Virus record (IMG/VR): IMGVR_UViG_3300017565_000002
Span: 32,001-96,000 of that record
Reading direction: 5' to 3' (one strand)
Source of the DNA: a virus
Taxonomy: Duplodnaviria; Caudoviricetes
Length of the DNA stretch: 64,000 nt
Shown: positions 4,027 to 62,273 of the stretch, piece by piece
Layout: each line of letters begins with the position of its first letter
How positions within the stretch are numbered: the stretch's first letter is position 1
Program-made: the position numbers and the translations under genes
Notes under the pieces: generated by a model
Told to the model about the DNA's origin: nothing
Seen by the model: the letters and a program-made list of their open reading frames with translations, nothing else
The model's database searches: none

Positions 4027-7000
4027 TTATATGACCCGTTCGGATATCATAACGTTACCCGTTGGTGCATCAATACCTACAGCTACAAACTTATTACCAC
4101 CATAGCACACCGATCTCCATTTGGTATCTACCGGAGTTGTTCTTAGTGTCCAGTTTAATCCATCAGGTGATGTCATTGCACGATTTCCTGTACCCGTATC
4201 GGAAACCGCTACAAATATCCCATTTCCAAATGCTACAGAGGTCCAACCATTATCGACTGGGTATGATACAGAGAACCACGTTATACCATCATATGAGGCC
4301 ATAACACGGTTGCCGGTTCCATTCCACGCCACCGACACAAATATTCCATTTCCATATGCTATTGAAGACCAGTAGTTATCGGCTGGGGTCGTTCCACTCA
4401 TCCAGGTTATACCATCCGCAGACACCATGACGCGATTTCCGCTTCCCGTTGTTGACACTGCCACAAACTTACCCGCTGCATGTGTCACATATGACCAAGC
4501 ATTACTCGATGCAGGCGTTCGAACAGTCCAATCTATACCGTCACTTGATGTCATAACCATATTTCCGGTTGTCGAAACGGATACCGCTACAAATAATCCT
4601 TCTCCGTAGGTTACACTATTCCAACTGCTAGATGGTGTTGAGCGTGGTATCCAAGTCTTACCATCCGTTGATGTCAAGACGTTGGCACCTGAGGTTTGAC
4701 CAACCGCTACGAATAAGCCATTACCAAAGCAGACAGATGTCCAATAAGAATTTGGGGTTGCCCTAGATGTCCAAGCAGATCCATCCGTAGAAGTCATAAT
4801 ATGCGTGGTCCCACCATCAGGTGATATTGCCACAAATAACCCAAGCCCATAGCATATAGCCGCCCAGCTGTTATTTGCCGATCCTGTCTTGGATAGCCAC
4901 ACAGCACCTGCCTGAACCATGGGCATTGCACGAACATATTCCGCGATTTTAAGTATTGAGTCTTTTTCCGATGCCTTCGTCGTACCTCGTTCTGCCAGTG
5001 TGTCAACTATCATTTTTCGAGCACCATCGACAGAGCTGAAATAATAGGATAAATTAGCTCCAGCATCAGATACCATGGCACAATATCCATTACCCGGAAC
5101 TCCAACTACTACAAATCTCCCAATAGCATAGCAGATACCCGTCCAACCCGGATTGAATGTATATTCAACAGGACCGGGTCTGACTGACCAGTTAATACCA
5201 TCAGGAGATACTAAAAGTTTATTCTCGTTTCCAATAGCTACAAACATCCCGTCACCATATGCAATATTAAGCCAAGTGTATGAGTTAGCCGATGAACGGT
5301 ATGTCCAACTAACACCATCCGATGACGTTATTATGTGGTTCCCCGTACCTGTACCAATTAGAGCTACGAACATTCCATTTCCATAGCACACAGCTCTAAG
5401 ATCAAGAGTATCCGGTGCAGTTTGTAATGTCCACGTCGTTCCGTCAGTTGATGTCCCAATTCGTTGGGTTGTCCCAGAGTTGTGGACCGCTACAAATATC
5501 CCATCACCAAAACAGATGGAATTCCAACCATATAAACTACCAGACGTTGTATTCGTCCAGTTCATGCCATCGGTAGATATTGACACGTCAGGACTTGAAC
5601 CATCCCGTGTCCCCACCGCTACAAACCTTCCATTCCCATAAGTCACGGATTGCCAATTTGTACTACTATCAATCGATGAGCTTAGGAACCAACCGGTGCC
5701 GGTATTCGACCACATGGCTCGACTGGAACCTGCTTGTCCGACTACAACAAATTTTCCTTTTGCATAGCAGATTGATTGCCATCCACTCGAAGAAGGTGTG
5801 GGTGTTGTTGACCAAGAATCGCCAGTGACTGACACCATCACAACGTTATTAGAACCCGATTGGATCGCAACGAATCTATTTTCTCCGTAAGTTATTGATT
5901 TCCAAGAGTGGTTGGCAGCCGTGGCACGCCTATCCCAACGTAAACCGGGTACTGATCCAAGTTTAAGAATGTCTTTAGCGTTTAGTGCAAGACCATCAGT
6001 TGGCGAGGCATTTGCACCTTTGCTGGTAAGGGCATCCCCTATACTAGTTTTACCTGCGTTGTCTCTAGTTAAAAACGATCCAAAGTCTGTTGAAGGTATA
6101 CTGGTCATAACTGAGTTTGCGGAACTCGGGCTATTTGCAACCGCCACAAATCTTCCGTTACCATAAACAATACCTTTCCAATTCAATGCGGTTGTACCGT
6201 CTCTTGGTGCAGGGAAAAGATACCACTCACCCGCAACCATAAGTGTAGTTGAATACATAACTTGATTGGCTGTATCATCACTTGATAAAGCAACCCATGA
6301 GTCACCACCAAAGGCAACCATATGCCATCTAACGTTTTCTGAACTTGCGACCATCCCGTTAGATGGCATATAGCTAGGTTCACTCAATATTAATACTTGA
6401 CTACCCAATCCCCCCGTTGAGGTTTCTACCGCTACAAACGATCCATTGCCAAAGGATATTGATGACCATGCTACTATGTTTGTACCAGTGAGTGTGGTGA
6501 TCTCCCAGTTTATACCGTCAGTTGACGACATAAGTCTCTTACCAGTGGCTTCCGTATACGTACCACTTGCAACTGCCACAAACCTTCCGTTTCCATATGC
6601 TACAGATTCCCATTGCCCGATAAAGGCGTCGCGTAATGTCCAATTGATACCGTCATATGACGTCATTACGGACTGTATATTGCTACTATAGCCTACTGCT
6701 ACATACATACCATTTCCATATACCACAGATGTCCACTGTTTAACATGTGTTAATGCCCCCGTCCAAGTAAATCCACTTGTAGAGGTCATGACATTGGCCA
6801 CGACGTTCGTGGGGTTAGATTCAGTTGCTAAAGCAACAAACTTCCCATCACCGAAACATATTGCTTTCCAATATCCCGTTGTCGTAGCATTTTGGTAAAT
6901 TTGTGGTGTTGTTCGTGCCGTCCAACTTTTACCGGTTGAAGACGTCATTACACCTGAGGTTGTCGTGGAACGTATGGCTACGAATGTATTCGCACCGAAT

Positions 7001-31471: not shown

Positions 31472-32212
31472 TTGGACATATTACCATACTTTGGCTCGGG
31501 AGATGAAGAAATGATACCTATATTTTCAGAACCATCCAATCATACTACGTATCGAAATACATCAGGTGTAGTTGTACCTTCAGTTACAAGCATTATTCAT
31601 ATGATAAATAAACCCGAATTGGTACACTGGGCTAACTCTTTAGGGTTTAAGAGGAAGAGTGTTAGTAAAGAGTTAGACGTATCTGCTTATATTGGTGATA
31701 TTACACACAAGTTGGTGGAAATCTATACTACAACGGGTAAATACTCATATGATATTATAGATCGCAAAGGTCCAGTCGAGAGATTAGGAATTAAAAATGC
31801 ATTCCTATCCTTTCTCCAGATGTATAAGACCGAGCACCCTCATATCGAAATTCATGATACAGAAGTTCAATTGGCCGGAGAGAAATTTGGTGGGACAACT
31901 GACCTTTTGGCTAAATATCATGGTAAGTTTACTATAGGAGATTACAAGACTAGCAAAGGATTCTATCCTACGATGTTTTTACAAATTGCAGGATACGATC
32001 TTCTACTCCGAGAGCTTGGATTATTTAAAGCCGAGCAATACGTCGTGTTCTTGTTAGATAAACGAGATGGTAGACCTGCCAAGATAAAGATATGTGACGA
32101 TAAAGATCAGATGCAGCTATATCGGAAGTGTTTTAAGACTTTGGTCGATTTCTATTACGATTGGTATATGATTAATCAACGCTACTGGGGTAAAGACCTC
32201 CTTGTTAAATAG
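31472..32212 (+). CDS. PD-(D/E)XK (RecB/lambda-exo-like) exonuclease; true start may be 31511
   Basis: PSVTSI, GTTD, DYKT and QxxxY motifs. Confidence 0.85.
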   Translation: MDILPYFGSGDEEMIPIFSEPSNHTTYRNTSGVVVPSVTSIIHMINKPELVHWANSLGFKRKSVSKELDVSAYIGDITHKLVEIYTTTGKYSYDIIDRKGPVERLGIKNAFLSFLQMYKTEHPHIEIHDTEVQLAGEKFGGTTDLLAKYHGKFTIGDYKTSKGFYPTMFLQIAGYDLLLRELGLFKAEQYVVFLLDKRDGRPAKIKICDDKDQMQLYRKCFKTLVDFYYDWYMINQRYWGKDLLVK

Positions 32213-40472: not shown

Positions 40473-40484
40473 AACAGATGAATA
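40473..40484 (+). promoter_or_regulatory. late promoter motif AACA-N6-TA preceding a non-coding unit
   Basis: AACAGATGAATA; the predicted +1 (40484) is the first base of the first stem. Confidence 0.6.
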
Positions 40485-40642
40485 TCCGATTGGGCCGCGC
40501 GGATTGCGGGGCTAGTTTCGGATACAGCTTAGGGTATTATACCTCGGTCGTTGAGAAGATTGGCCGATCGAGGTATTTACCCGACCCCAAACCCCAATAT
40601 CTCCCCATACGCCCGCTCTCAGCGTATGGGGAAACTACTTTT
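40484..40642 (+). ncRNA. candidate novel structured ncRNA (~155 nt)
   Basis: About 56% GC (hand count). Three stem-loops (40484-40523, 40532-40582, 40602-40632) and a C-rich linker; no credible ORF. Confidence 0.6.
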
Positions 40643-40717
40643 AAATTAATTCTAATTATACATCAAACAAATTTATGATTAATACCCATCCTAGAAGCGT
40701 CACTTTATTTTTCAGAC

Positions 40718-58008: not shown

Positions 58009-60198
58009 ATGGAACCCAAGAAGATTGTAAAGCGACTGAATCGATATATTGATGAAAATCGGTATGCGTCAGCTGCTAGTCTCGTATCATCACCCGATGT
58101 GGCCGAGAGCTTGTTATCATACTTGTATTGGGTGGAGAGAAACATCTCCAATCGCGGAGATTATGATGAAGTAATGAAAGACATAGAAGAAGCAATTGAG
58201 ACTGTTATTAAGGTTTCCAAACTTCTCTATGACATCAACTGGACAAGAACTGGGCTTATGTTCAGACTTATGCCGGACGAAGTGTATGACAATTTGCTTG
58301 AGCGTTATAAGAGTATCAAAGATCAAGAGCCGTTCCCGGACAAAGTATTCTCTGGAATGAGAGATGAATCTCACGACTTTCCTGAATTGGTGGGTACACT
58401 GGATAAGGCATATGAGATTCGAGACATCAGTGACAAAATGTCGCTTGAGAAGTTCTTGAAAAGAATTATGACGTCTATGAACTTGAAGCGATTGGCTATT
58501 GGTATTGGTGAGAAGTACGACGGAACTTCTATTTCGGCAACCTTCTCAACAGTTTCTACATTGACTATTCCATTAAAGGCAACTTCCCGCGGAGACTTCA
58601 TTGAAAATAAAGGAGTCGACATGAGTCGATTGGTCATCGGGCGTAAGGGATTTGGTATAGGCCCATTCCATACCCTGATGGATAAAATGGGTATCCAATA
58701 TGAGGTGATGATCACCGAGGATGGAAGGAATCAGTTATCGAAGCTGACCGGAATCAACTATTCGACTCGTCGAGCAGCCGCTACAGCCGCTGTAAAACGG
58801 CTTACCCATGGCGATCTGTCACAGGATGAGGTTGAAAAGTTCTTTAAATGCATATCTTTGGTCCCACTGAACGTCAATGAGCAATTCCTACGTGTACTAG
58901 ATCTGAGCTGGTTTCAAGCGATGGATCAACTTGGAACTGTTGCAAAGTATGGAGACATCACACCTAAGATTGATATCATTGAGGGTACGTTAGAGGAACT
59001 CTTGGTTCAGTTTACCGACTACGTAGCGAAATATGCAGCCCTCAGAAACACATTGCCCTACAATATTGATGGGCTAGTAGTTTCCGTTGTCGATGAAGCT
59101 GTGCGTAAGGAATTGGGAAGATCCAACAATAAGAATCGTTGGCAAATTGCCTATAAGTTCAATGCATTAGTAAGACGAACGAAGGTAATTGGTATCCTAA
59201 CCACACAAGGACGTCAAGGGTTTTTAGGCCATAACATCCTGTTTGATCCAATCGAGTTCAATGGTGTGCAGTATGATAAGGCACCTGTGAATAATGTGAC
59301 TCGATTTAATGGATTGGATTTACGCATTAGAGATGAAGTATTAGTCTCCTATAATGCAGATGTGATGGGATATCTATATAAAGACGATACCTGTGTGCCA
59401 AACCCCGACGGAAAGAAGATTAAACTTCCGAAACGGTGTGTCAACTGCGAAGAACCGCTAATCATCGTAAAGGATATGCTCAAGTGTACAAACGAGGATT
59501 GCCCCGGTCAACAGATTGGGCGTATCTTAGAGGTTATTCGTATTTTGGATATCGATTTCTTCGGGGAAGAAACAGCTCAAGCCCTGACTGAGAATGGTAT
59601 CACAAATGCGATTGACTTCATCAGTATGGACAGGGATACATTAGCTAAAGTGCTTGTCGGAAAGAACTTGGACAAAGCATGGAAGCAATTCCGGGATAAG
59701 ATAGAAGCCGAGATTGACTATGCAAAAGTAGTGGATCTCCTCCGAGTACCTTCTCTCCGGACGAAGACAGCCAGAAAGATCTTGGATCACATTGGTGTTA
59801 CCAAGTTTCTATCCTTGATGGTAGGTTCTGCAACGCAAACGGGTCAACGCTATCTGGCTAAATCTCTCACAGAAGTTCCGGGTATTAATAAGAATGCGAC
59901 AGGATTTGCCGAGGGGTTAGCAGCTAAGCTTGATGAATTTAATCGACTTGTTGGGCTACTGAATGTCGTAGAAGGAACCCAACCAGTATTTGATAAAATG
60001 GTATTGGTATCAGGGTTTAGACGGGATGACACATTCGAGGAAATCTGTAAGAAATTGAACTATGGTGTGACAGATTCGGGGAAATATGATATTCTGGTTG
60101 TGACACAAGACCGGCTAGATGGGTCTAAAGCACGTGCTGCTCGAAAATCCGGAAAACCGATCTATACGCTTCCGGAATTTATTTCCAAATATAAATAA
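58009..60198 (+). CDS. ligA: NAD-dependent DNA ligase
   Basis: EKYDG, IDGLV, IAYKF, Zn finger CVNC...C....C, HhH region and BRCT. Confidence 0.93.
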   Translation: MEPKKIVKRLNRYIDENRYASAASLVSSPDVAESLLSYLYWVERNISNRGDYDEVMKDIEEAIETVIKVSKLLYDINWTRTGLMFRLMPDEVYDNLLERYKSIKDQEPFPDKVFSGMRDESHDFPELVGTLDKAYEIRDISDKMSLEKFLKRIMTSMNLKRLAIGIGEKYDGTSISATFSTVSTLTIPLKATSRGDFIENKGVDMSRLVIGRKGFGIGPFHTLMDKMGIQYEVMITEDGRNQLSKLTGINYSTRRAAATAAVKRLTHGDLSQDEVEKFFKCISLVPLNVNEQFLRVLDLSWFQAMDQLGTVAKYGDITPKIDIIEGTLEELLVQFTDYVAKYAALRNTLPYNIDGLVVSVVDEAVRKELGRSNNKNRWQIAYKFNALVRRTKVIGILTTQGRQGFLGHNILFDPIEFNGVQYDKAPVNNVTRFNGLDLRIRDEVLVSYNADVMGYLYKDDTCVPNPDGKKIKLPKRCVNCEEPLIIVKDMLKCTNEDCPGQQIGRILEVIRILDIDFFGEETAQALTENGITNAIDFISMDRDTLAKVLVGKNLDKAWKQFRDKIEAEIDYAKVVDLLRVPSLRTKTARKILDHIGVTKFLSLMVGSATQTGQRYLAKSLTEVPGINKNATGFAEGLAAKLDEFNRLVGLLNVVEGTQPVFDKMVLVSGFRRDDTFEEICKKLNYGVTDSGKYDILVVTQDRLDGSKARAARKSGKPIYTLPEFISKYK

Positions 60199-60208
60199 AT
60201 TGAGTTCT

Positions 60209-60220
60209 AACAATTTATTG
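60209..60220 (+). promoter_or_regulatory. late promoter motif AACA-N6-TG preceding a non-coding unit
   Basis: AACAATTTATTG, 11 nt after the ligase stop. Confidence 0.6.
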
Positions 60221-60540
60221 AATCTGAATCTTAGTCGAAGGGTCGCCAGAGGCGATTTTGGATCAAATCTCTTCGTACTCATAATCGCTTTACCGTAGAC
60301 GGAACTGACTGTGCATGTGCGCGGCGGCGAACAATGGGCTAGGGATGTGAAGAGTGCAGGTTGTTTTACCATCGGCCTTGTACTGAAGAATTCCAACGCT
60401 CGGTTTGCATTCTGTCATTTGAGGGAGAGCTGGAGACTGATACGGAGGTACGATCAAACAATTCCAAATGGACCCTGTTTGACTAAGGTGATAAGATCAG
60501 TAACGGACTGAGCCATAAAGGTGCTCAGTCCGTTATCTTT
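60220..60540 (+). ncRNA. candidate novel structured ncRNA (~320 nt)
   Basis: About 48% GC (hand count). 15-bp long-range stem 60230-60244 / 60471-60487, internal stems, perfect 13-bp terminal hairpin 60501-60535. Confidence 0.65.
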
Positions 60541-60653
60541 GTCGAGTAATTTATAATGACCCATAAAACTAAAAATAGCATGAAATGCGGGAATGTATAG
60601 AAAGAAAAAGGCCTAACCATTTCAAATATTTTAAAACACTACAACGACCAATG

Positions 60654-60662
60654 ATATATTAT
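60654..60662 (+). promoter_or_regulatory. early promoter motif ATATATTAT
   Basis: Exact copy upstream of the 60706 gene. Confidence 0.7.
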
Positions 60663-60705
60663 AGGATAGTATAACCACTTTAAATCTCGAAGGAGATGGA
60701 AGACA

Positions 60706-61470
60706 ATGATTGAAGCGTACATTAGTTTAAAGACTGCTAAGAAGGTTATGGATTTGGCTGACTGGAAAGACTTTGTCAAGCAAATCACAAAGGAAGCCGA
60801 TGACAGAGACAAAGCCAAGGAAAATATGGATATGGTCATACAGGCTCATATTACCTCGGCGATATCGCAGGCAATTCCGCGTGCTGTGTATTTGAAAGTG
60901 CTTGAATTGTCGAAGCAGGGTCAATTGGAAGATGGTGAGATAGTTGGCTCCGTACATATCGGACCATTATCATATAGTGCAATTGTTTCACGTCAAGAGG
61001 AAAACGGTACAGTTTCCGTCACCCCTCATTTGGATTCCACAGATCCAAACGGCGAATCTTGGTCGTATCAGCTATTCGAGCGTAAGCCATACAAACATCC
61101 CGAGCTTCTGCAAATCATTGCAACGCAAATACTGGATAACGAAGATATCCTGATCGAATGCGTCCGCAATTTCTTTGCAGGATGGACATACGATTCCAAT
61201 AAGGATGTATGGGTTGAAAATGATGCCATGTTTGATTTAAGTTTCACGGATAGCGATATCTCGCATTTTATCGCAATTCACATCATGACGTTATTGTATG
61301 CGCTCGTCAATTCACTTGGAGAGGATGATGCGGAGGGCTATTCCGGTGTGCATATCCCACAGGAAGGTACCTATCTAATTTCCACTTCGTCTGACGGGAC
61401 GATGGTTGTAAGCTTGGTGCCAGACGTTAATTACAAACTTGCAATCAAGAACGACAGACTCAAGTTGTAG
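60706..61470 (+). CDS. early acidic protein, paralog 1
   Basis: Shares GPxxY, YD....WVE, EGTY.I and AIKNDRL with the 61569 gene. Confidence 0.8.
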   Translation: MIEAYISLKTAKKVMDLADWKDFVKQITKEADDRDKAKENMDMVIQAHITSAISQAIPRAVYLKVLELSKQGQLEDGEIVGSVHIGPLSYSAIVSRQEENGTVSVTPHLDSTDPNGESWSYQLFERKPYKHPELLQIIATQILDNEDILIECVRNFFAGWTYDSNKDVWVENDAMFDLSFTDSDISHFIAIHIMTLLYALVNSLGEDDAEGYSGVHIPQEGTYLISTSSDGTMVVSLVPDVNYKLAIKNDRLKL

Positions 61471-61568: not shown

Positions 61569-62273
61569 ATGGCAAAATCCTTTATCGAACTTACAAATGA
61601 GGCAACAGTTGCGGCATTCGAATGCCAGCAACTCAACGACGGGCAAGAGAAACATGCCCCCGTCGATTTGGTACTGCAATCTATCATCGATTCCGGCATC
61701 TCAGCGGGAATTCCGAGGGCACTATATCTCCTGATGGAGAAAGATCCACGGGAGGAAGTGTCGATTGAAGTCGGCCCGTTTACGTACGGTGTATCGCTGA
61801 AGAAAACCGGCGAGTCGATGTCGCTTAACCCGATGTTTTCGTTAACCAACGAAAAGAAGACGATCAATGAGTTGGGCGAATATGAAGAAAAGATGATCAA
61901 ACTTATCCCACTCATTGATTCTGTTTCCCAGTCGATCACCAATGATCTGCTGCTCGAAACTGTCATTCATACTTGCAAATTGGACGAGTACGACACAACA
62001 ACTTCCGCATGGGTTGAAAAGGTCAACGACGCGGACAAGGGTGTCGATCTCGACCGGTATACGGTATCGTTCCTGATTGCTTCCCATGTGGTCGCAATTC
62101 TGCACGTACTCGCCAATCAGCGCAATGCCGAGGAATTGGTGAAGTATGAAGTGCCGGGTGAAGGTACTTATACGATCCAATCCGTCAAAGGCAAATGGGA
62201 AATCGGATTCATTGCAAGCAAAGAGTTCAAGCAGGCTATCAAGAACGACCGTTTGGTGGACGCCCTGGCATAA
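61569..62273 (+). CDS. early acidic protein, paralog 2
   Basis: AAAGGAG RBS, own early promoter and terminator; paralog of the 60706 gene. Confidence 0.8.
   Translation: MAKSFIELTNEATVAAFECQQLNDGQEKHAPVDLVLQSIIDSGISAGIPRALYLLMEKDPREEVSIEVGPFTYGVSLKKTGESMSLNPMFSLTNEKKTINELGEYEEKMIKLIPLIDSVSQSITNDLLLETVIHTCKLDEYDTTTSAWVEKVNDADKGVDLDRYTVSFLIASHVVAILHVLANQRNAEELVKYEVPGEGTYTIQSVKGKWEIGFIASKEFKQAIKNDRLVDALA

Follow-up and report, generated by a model that had tools for sequence, protein, structure and literature searches.

A probable late gene for a structured non-coding RNA of about 320 nt in uncultured AR9-like jumbo phages

A 507-nt gap between two genes was analysed in a 64,000-nt stretch of virus DNA (Duplodnaviria; Caudoviricetes), positions 32,001 to 96,000 of IMG/VR record IMGVR_UViG_3300017565_000002; this whole stretch is called the window, and coordinates refer to it unless a relative is named. 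The gap lies between a NAD-dependent DNA ligase gene (58009-60198) and a 254-aa open reading frame (ORF; 60706-61470). With a probability of about 0.7, the gap is occupied by an independent gene whose product is a non-coding RNA of ~320 nt, stable and highly structured, found so far in a clade of uncultured AR9-like jumbo phages. AR9-like jumbo phages rely on two unusual multisubunit RNA polymerases for the transcription of their genomes, and the late products known from them so far are mRNAs and some antisense RNAs. The unit itself is real, conserved, structured and non-coding; that it is a genuine non-coding RNA gene is very probable, and the RNA is probably expressed. It represents a new RNA family, absent from Rfam 15 and from GenBank phages, of a familiar general kind, the virus-encoded stable structured RNA. 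A sequence-only reading had singled the unit out as an undescribed multi-domain phage RNA with a promoter, a closed body and a terminator hairpin. The unit was confirmed as a whole, with every coordinate correct, and its interpretation is now supported by the promoter, synteny, covariation, unconserved ORFs, the lack of an Rfam match and metatranscriptome contigs of a relative.

The late promoter consensus of phage AR9 is AACA-(6N)-T-A/G, the final base being the start site (PMC5312081). The sequence AACAATTTATTG at 60209-60220 on the + strand (AACA-N6-T-G) is an exact match of the AR9 late type, and its last base, G60220, is the predicted start, the same base that had been proposed from the sequence alone. 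Throughout the genome of the window's phage, the late motif was 4.5 times as dense in intergenic as in coding DNA, and in 22 of the 36 genes with one upstream it was located 20-39 nt ahead of the start codon. At the other end of the unit, the predicted terminator (60500-60541, + strand) comprises a perfect 13-bp hairpin (60501-60513/60523-60535; −23.2 kcal/mol) with a 9-nt loop, followed by the short T-rich tail TCTTTG. A simple consensus terminator scan does not call this hairpin because of the size of its loop. Further downstream, at 60650-60669 (+ strand), AATGATATATTAT-(6N)-G fits the AR9 early promoter consensus, AAATATATATTAT-(6N)-G (PMC5312081); this predicted early promoter of the next gene bounds the unit, and the early motif is kept 3' of the RNA in relatives. 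The AR9 early core ATATATTAT (its G start lying 6 nt further on) and the late motif were both conserved across the uncultured clade. From these motifs, both polymerase specificities seem to be common to AR9 and the clade, despite shared proteins that are only ~26% identical.

Relatives were collected by a protein search, which gave 13 ligases at 46-60% identity, and from their contigs together with ligase-alignment scans 17 distinct loci with downstream sequence were obtained. All 17 had the same order: late motif, closed rod of 260-345 nt, hairpin, early motif, and a gene of an acidic 235-260-aa family. The late motif abutting the RNA was exact in 15 of the 17, the remaining two being one lineage with C at −1. 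A hairpin of −12 to −26 kcal/mol was found 270-345 nt past the predicted start in every locus, with long T runs after it in several relatives. Three loci (L007, L023 and L052) carried an additional gene between the ligase and an intact RNA unit, which argues that the RNA is not merely the tail of the ligase gene. The RNA was present once per complete genome, in the window's own phage and in relatives.

The intervening ORFs were of two kinds. L023 (4628-5170) and L052 (4713-5237) have one of 174-175 aa, and L007 (6189-6473) has one of 94 aa with a CxxC...CxxC zinc-ribbon-like end.

Outside this clade, the searches were negative. AR9 has no comparable gap after its ligase and no match to the RNA covariance models described below. 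Nucleotide and protein searches of 50,697 GenBank phages with the window RNA, a subgroup-B RNA and the downstream proteins gave no match, so that no cultured carrier is known. Scans of IMG/VR with single proteins returned nothing, the relatives having come from the ligase alignment, and a 26-base gapped DNA pattern of subgroup B recovered only seven contigs that were already known. Two soil runs (X3 and X4) contained identical fragments with no sequence variation.

Folding, covariance-model matches and pair counts describe the RNA body (60220-60499, + strand; ~280 nt) as a closed rod with a three-way junction. From 60220 to 60545, the + strand folded at −116 kcal/mol compared to −93.9 ± 5.2 for dinucleotide shuffles (z −4.2; 0/100 as good), and the − strand of the same stretch gave z −2.4. 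The body had a GC content of 0.47 and the flanks one of 0.30-0.37, bearing out the GC excess first noticed in the sequence; neighbouring genes are not lower in GC than the body.

The long-range stem that had been proposed to close the unit, 60230-60244 with 60471-60487, is complementary over 9 bp (one G-U), a 2-nt bulge and 6 bp, and is part of the minimum-energy fold. There it is slightly extended, 60228-60242 pairing with 60473-60489 and 60222-60225 with 60494-60497. The 5' strand of this closing helix thus spans 60222-60242 (60222-60225 and 60228-60242) and pairs within 60473-60497, the 3' strand (60473-60476, 60479-60489 and 60494-60497), which is predicted from both the minimum-energy fold and the end duplex. 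Two of the three internal stems listed in the sequence-only reading also stood, namely TCGCC/GGCGA at 60243-60255, a small 5' hairpin predicted in the minimum-energy fold of the window, and GTGCAGG/CCTTGTAC at 60354-60383. The third, TGAC..TGCA/TGCA..GTCA (60306-60315/60406-60417), was dropped: it is absent from the fold and had no support from relatives, its bases forming instead the hairpin at 60306-60326 and two other covarying helices.

The pairing of the two ends was examined in 15 non-redundant loci by matching the first 35 nt from each predicted start with the 60 nt preceding the hairpin. The duplex between a locus's own ends averaged −22.0 kcal/mol, compared to −11.7 ± 4.8 for ends taken from other loci. 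The own 3' partner ranked first in 11 loci and no lower than fourth in any of the 15; where it was not first, close relatives that share sequence were involved. For the window, the duplex of −26.9 kcal/mol was the best among the 15 possible partners. In all 15 loci, transcribed base 1 or 2 was already paired with the stretch preceding the terminator, which supports the predicted start sites. The outer helices differ in sequence between loci yet pair, which amounts to covariation of a whole helix.

For the inner part, the loci were treated as subgroups: A (the window, L002, L004 and partly L014), B (L008, L010, L012, L015, L017 and L019) and C (L005 and L052). For subgroup A, MAFFT gave a structurally consistent alignment in the apical arm only, and a single-sequence covariance model was therefore used. 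This model, R2, took as its sole input the segment 60261-60455 of the window and the minimum-energy structure of that segment; R1 was built from subgroup B and R3 from subgroup A. Over its full length, R2 matched both L002 (40.7 bits, E 2.5e-8) and L004 (27.3 bits, E 5e-5) at the syntenic position. In the resulting alignment of subgroup A (A7), which holds three sequences fitted to the structure so that its pair counts are inflated, 94.5% of the cells were standard pairs and 29 of 66 pairs showed changes on both sides. When the partners were slid by 1-3 columns only 3-7 such pairs remained, and none of 500 shuffles reached the observed values. Subgroup B was aligned by plain MAFFT without structure and gave 93.2% pairing with 26 of 65 pairs compensatory, compared to 3-13 in slid controls and, again, 0/500 shuffles; R1 extended further to L009 (E 3e-8) and L011 (E 3e-3). 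Lack of compensatory changes in homologues had been named beforehand as a result that would speak against the RNA; such changes were found in two subgroups independently, together with the absence of a conserved reading frame, the combination expected of a structured non-coding RNA.

Between subgroups, the models carried little. R1 matched neither subgroup A nor C, and outside the three sequences of A7 the models R2 and R3 detected no more than the arm with the purine loop, in L014 and L007 (E 0.1-0.8), R3 finding this arm alone at E 0.1 in L014 and E 0.27 in L007. From the shared position, promoter and overall plan, the arm base GCGA/UUGC, and RNA subgroups that track ligase similarity, we infer that the subgroups probably have a single origin.

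In the architecture common to the window, L002 and L004, the closing helix leads into an inner rod interrupted by small loops, and the rod into a three-way junction, the other two branches of which are a short hairpin and a long arm. In the window, the 5' strand of the inner rod is predicted at 60261-60304 (helices 60261-64, 60271-77, 60279-81, 60285-90 and 60298-304) and its 3' strand at 60410-60455, the latter holding a GGAGG that is paired in the fold and conserved in the closest relatives. These helices (1-4 of A7) were 89-100% paired, with changes on both sides in 13 of 31 pairs. The short hairpin of the junction (60306-60326; helix 5) was 100% paired, with such changes in four of eight pairs, and its sequence is wholly different in L002 and L004. 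The long arm (60327-60408; helices 6-9) has the base GCGAAC/GTTTGC, two short helices, a purine-rich internal loop and an apical hairpin; the helices GACGGAA/TTCTGTC and GCGAAC/GTTTGC covary in A7. The apical hairpin (60353-60384; helix 9), with the 9-nt loop TTTTACCAT, was 94% paired and had three pairs with both-side changes.

The conserved purine-rich loop of the arm has the strands GTGAAG at 60347-60352 and GAAGA, within CTGAAGAA, at 60385-60389. Five sequences (the window, L002, L004, L014 and L007) keep the 5' sequence GTGAA(G/T)A and have TGAAGA, without variation, on the 3' side; the flanking helices also recur in L014 and L007. At the RNA level, the arm of the window, L002 and L004 thus reads as a base GCGAA/UUUGC, two covarying short helices, a loop of 5' GUGAA(G/U)A against 3' (C)UGAAGA, and the apical hairpin. 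Subgroup B shares this layout of rod, junction with short hairpin, and arm, here on GCGAU/UUGCU, with a GGAU/UGAA loop whose 3' strand is GUGAAGAG and a conserved GAAAAA bulge. In subgroup C and L007, too, a short hairpin and a long arm meet at a junction.

Evidence for expression came from L015, a member of subgroup B, which is partly present in three metatranscriptomes of three studies (one bioreactor and two phyllosphere) and also partly in one compost run that is probably DNA. The contigs were placed on 2 kb of L015, where the RNA is predicted to start at 4724 and the hairpin lies at 5022-5055. Whole contigs fell inside the predicted RNA (4784-4973, 4752-5023, 4743-5004 and 4781-4941), further contigs started at 5146 and 5230, just past the predicted early starts (~5122 and ~5226), and none was placed on the 840 nt of ligase gene covered. 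These limits fit the predicted units, an agreement not to be expected from contaminating DNA, and so support expression. The L015 contigs give moderate confidence that the family is expressed and are not proof for the window's phage.

Of the other explanations considered, the one that survives best, still unlikely, is that the element acts in cis on transcription, as a stabiliser or terminator of the 3' end of the ligase transcript, as an insulator between late and early transcription, or as a read-through leader for the downstream genes. The ligase gene of the window lacks a terminator of its own, so that the RNA hairpin is the first one downstream; the RNA always adjoins the same downstream gene family; and the order late promoter, structured RNA, terminator, early promoter and gene occurs twice in the genome, at 60.2 kb and 40.5 kb. 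In L012 and L017, however, the ligase gene does have its own terminator and the RNA unit begins ~190 nt further on. The dedicated promoter abutting the first helix in all 17 loci is likewise at odds with a cis role, and a 280-nt fold with a conserved junction far exceeds what termination or insulation needs. In addition, the L015 metatranscriptome contigs end at the hairpin, with no bridging to the downstream gene.

More doubtful still is a regulatory RNA acting by base pairing, a short exposed segment of which would bind mRNAs of the phage or the host and shut them off late, one possible site being the ribosome-binding site of the early gene downstream. By inspection, pairing over 8 bp with one bulge is possible between AUCUCUUCG (60266-60274) and CGAAGGAGAU, where the 254-aa gene has its ribosome-binding site, and in L002 AUCUCUCCU matches AGGAGAGAU ahead of its gene over 9 bp, a match likewise seen by inspection. 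The segment resembling an anti-Shine-Dalgarno sequence is, however, buried in a conserved helix, paired to an internal GGAG, and CUCC-like runs match Shine-Dalgarno sequences generally. The motif is missing in subgroups B and C, and no conserved single-stranded seed is common to all groups.

A DNA-level element, such as a miniature inverted-repeat transposable element, a replication origin, a packaging site or a cruciform, is very improbable. The 15-bp inverted repeat around ~225 bp does resemble a miniature transposon, and the locus sits among replication genes. Against this, the element is single-copy and in the same place in relatives, where a miniature transposon would be expected in several copies, and the site does not move between phages whose ligases share just 46-60% identity. 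In all but one of 15 loci the body folded better on the + strand (mean z −3.65 vs −1.91), and G-U pairs were in excess on that strand (16 vs 7 on the − strand in the window; 13 vs 1 in L012), each of which would be an A-C mismatch on the other. Both the stability and the G-U excess point to RNA from the + strand rather than to a DNA structure. The promoter and terminator frame the unit exactly, and its position at 92 kb of the 216-kb genome is far from the terminal repeats.

It is just as improbable that the RNA is a very diverged member of a known family, such as 6S, SRP, RNase P, tmRNA, Y RNA or phi29 pRNA, or the remnant of a group I intron, even though its paired 5' and 3' ends and rod shape recall 6S, SRP, Y RNA and pRNA. 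A search of the window against Rfam 15, which took in 6S, SRP, RNase P, tmRNA, YrlA, Phage_pRNA, group I intron, T-box, ROOL and GOLLD, found nothing at the gathering score and, at E up to 10, chance-level matches only, none of them over the RNA body. Seven relatives searched at E up to 5 gave no relevant match. ARAGORN found no tmRNA in the window, only a tRNA-Leu elsewhere, and no large central bubble of the 6S type was present. The impression gained from the sequence that hallmarks of tmRNA, RNase P and SRP are missing was thereby upheld.

Least probable of all is a small protein gene, since the 66-aa ORF at 60311-60511 has a GTG start and, as first noted, no ribosome-binding site, and is not conserved (conservation having been named beforehand as a point that would tell against the RNA), the closest relative, L002, has 27-aa ORFs only, L005, L014, L019 and L052 have no + strand ORF of at least 25 aa, and the 40-46-aa ORF of three subgroup-B members (~55% identity) is missing in L015 and L019, which share the conserved nucleotides that account for its similarity.

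Three more specific candidates were rejected. A retron non-coding RNA, which would be closed by inverted repeats and stand beside a reverse transcriptase gene, was discarded as the whole 216-kb genome gave no RVT_1 (reverse transcriptase) match. A sequence that might mimic the promoter template strand (UGUU) in the manner of 6S occurs in the apical loop of the window and L002 and is not conserved in L004, L014 or subgroup B. For a terminator/antiterminator switch, the window has the similar sequences GACTAAG and GACTGAG, and inspection of L002 and L008 showed no consistent counterpart.

The preferred reading, a free-standing RNA gene, suggests the following course of events. The non-virion RNA polymerase would start at G60220 from the consensus late promoter, the first transcribed bases would pair with the last bases of the body to close the RNA into a rod, and the strong hairpin would terminate the transcript. 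The outer rod retains pairing only, the conserved core being the three-way junction with its short hairpin and the long arm with the purine loop. Ends buried in helices should confer resistance to exonucleases and allow late accumulation, and the RNA may act in trans through its shape, with a host or phage protein bound at the junction or the purine loop. An anatomy with no single-stranded 5' leader, buried ends, a freely varying rod and a conserved junction, together with a late promoter and a place in the polymerase cluster, is the design of protein-binding RNAs that act by shape (6S RNA, Y RNAs, phi29 pRNA and adenovirus VA RNA among them), and a fold kept while the sequence diverged almost past recognition indicates a shape-dependent function under selection. 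A late, abundant protein-binding decoy or scaffold is, by analogy, the tentatively favoured mechanism, at somewhat less than even odds. A narrower version, for which the odds are considerably longer, would be a dedicated viral decoy like 6S or VA RNA that accumulates late and, by way of its junction and purine loop, sequesters either the phage's non-canonical polymerase or a host RNA-sensing defence or nuclease. The polymerase is put forward as a target because the RNA lies in the polymerase gene cluster and would be made by that very enzyme.

Several observations weigh against the preferred reading or its proposed mechanism. The window's own sequence was found in DNA runs only and in no RNA run; strand and true ends cannot be read from the L015 contigs, and the compost run, which is probably DNA, is similar in pattern. 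The window terminator is without a long U run. The body of L014 folds no better than shuffles (z −0.25). The subgroups are small, with 3-5 sequences each, to which the inflated counts of A7 may be added; no covariance-model link joins subgroup A, to which the window belongs, to subgroup B, and the common origin of the two has no significant alignment behind it. As for a protein partner, a search of the phage genome for RNA-binding candidates gave no L7Ae, TROVE/Ro or RNase III homologue, and the adjoining protein family is acidic (pI ~4.8), which makes it an unlikely RNA binder. The canonical kink-turn (box C/D-like) has a helix, a 3-nt bulge, and tandem sheared G-A and A-G pairs. In the purine loop, 5' GUGAAGA stands opposite 3' CUGAAGA next to the helix GGGAU/AUUCC and could form two tandem sheared G-A steps, a predicted arrangement that resembles a kink-turn or box C/D motif; it is not canonical, the bulge being 2 nt (GU or GA) rather than 3 in all five sequences with the motif.

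If the decoy reading is true, this would be the first RNA known from jumbo phages with multisubunit polymerases to act by shape in regulation or against host defence, and binding to a polymerase, nuclease or defence protein would add an RNA layer to the biology of jumbo-phage takeover. Otherwise, it is a well-defined orphan RNA with clear ends and a core, the junction and purine loop, fit for structural study. In either case, a clade has kept a dedicated late gene whose only product is apparently a folded RNA, the value of which is limited at present by the lack of a cultured phage carrier.

The source record is a complete virus genome of 215,803 bp with direct terminal repeats, originating from soil metagenomes. 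Its ligase is only ~26% identical to the ligases of the Bacillus phages AR9 and PBS1 and of Staphylococcus jumbo phages. The surroundings of the RNA are a non-virion RNA polymerase cluster: in relatives the gene preceding the ligase has an Rpb2_6 domain, and the window gene from 62370 onwards matches a phage polymerase family. The gap that holds the RNA ranks third by length among the gene-free gaps of the genome; the longest, at 85280-85888 (609 nt), is without promoter motifs.

The acidic early proteins encoded next to the RNA form a family of 234-261 aa (pI ~4.8) that is always 3' of it, as one or two tandem paralogues; members are encoded at 60706-61470 and 61569-62273 (+ strand) in the window and in relatives L002-L012 and L051. 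No Pfam or PHROG match was found for the family. Its AlphaFold model was confident (pLDDT 91.6, pTM 0.89) and had no fold match in the PDB, and BFVD gave only two uncharacterised Myoviridae proteins (E 3e-5 and 5e-4). In L012 (6850-7307) and the same region of L017 the first gene past the RNA looks degraded; this lineage has a 1060-nt gap after the ligase in which only a 54-aa ORF is called, followed by an intact 234-aa paralogue.

A second unit laid out in the same way was noticed at 40473-40650 (+ strand), with the late motif AACAGATGAATA, three hairpins, an early motif and a gene. From its predicted start, this unit measures 167 nt and folds at −68.3 kcal/mol (z −4.9; 0/200 shuffles as good). 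It is unlike the 60.2-kb RNA, of which the R2 scan of the genome gives one copy only.

Among known systems, the comparisons with 6S RNA, VA RNA I, pRNA and the Y RNAs are analogies from general knowledge and do not imply membership. ROOL and GOLLD are large ornate RNAs of phages and prophages (580-800 nt) that form homo-oligomeric cages, usually lie near tRNA genes and are represented in Rfam. The window RNA is likewise phage-associated, highly structured and non-coding; unlike them it has ~320 nt, and neither it nor the seven relatives matched their Rfam models. Y RNAs (YrlA) occur in some phages, are encoded beside a Ro gene and carry a tRNA-like domain. Their long stem between the 5' and 3' ends, a protein-binding platform, is the point of likeness, whereas the window phage has no Ro (TROVE) gene and its RNA no Rfam match. 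The pRNA of phi29 (Rfam RF00044) is an early RNA of 120-174 nt, restricted to small phi29-like phages with protein-primed DNA. Like the present RNA, it is phage-encoded, has a helix joining its 5' and 3' ends and a three-way junction, and keeps its secondary structure at very low sequence identity. Its two loops pair between molecules, whereas complementary loops were not seen in the window RNA, which also lacks an Rfam match.

The two remaining analogues are decoys. The 6S RNA (Rfam RF00013) is a decoy of bacterial RNA polymerase with a large single-stranded central bubble, between a closing and a terminal stem, that mimics an open promoter. In place of such a bubble, the phage RNA has, in the window and its relatives, small internal loops, a three-way junction and a purine-rich loop; it lacks an Rfam match, its transcriber would be a non-canonical phage polymerase, and polymerase binding is putative. 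Both are stable rods of a few hundred nucleotides with a closing stem of the 5' and 3' ends and a poorly conserved sequence in a shape that is kept, and the phage RNA lies in a polymerase cluster and would be transcribed by the enzyme it might regulate. VA RNA I of adenovirus is a viral decoy of PKR, the host sensor of double-stranded RNA, ~160 nt long and made by RNA polymerase III. It differs from the phage RNA in belonging to a eukaryotic virus, in size and polymerase, and in having no sequence relation to it. In plan the two are alike: VA RNA I too is a virus-encoded late RNA with a promoter and terminator of its own, as predicted for the phage RNA, a terminal stem made by the 5' and 3' ends, a central three-way junction and an apical stem, and it acts by its shape.

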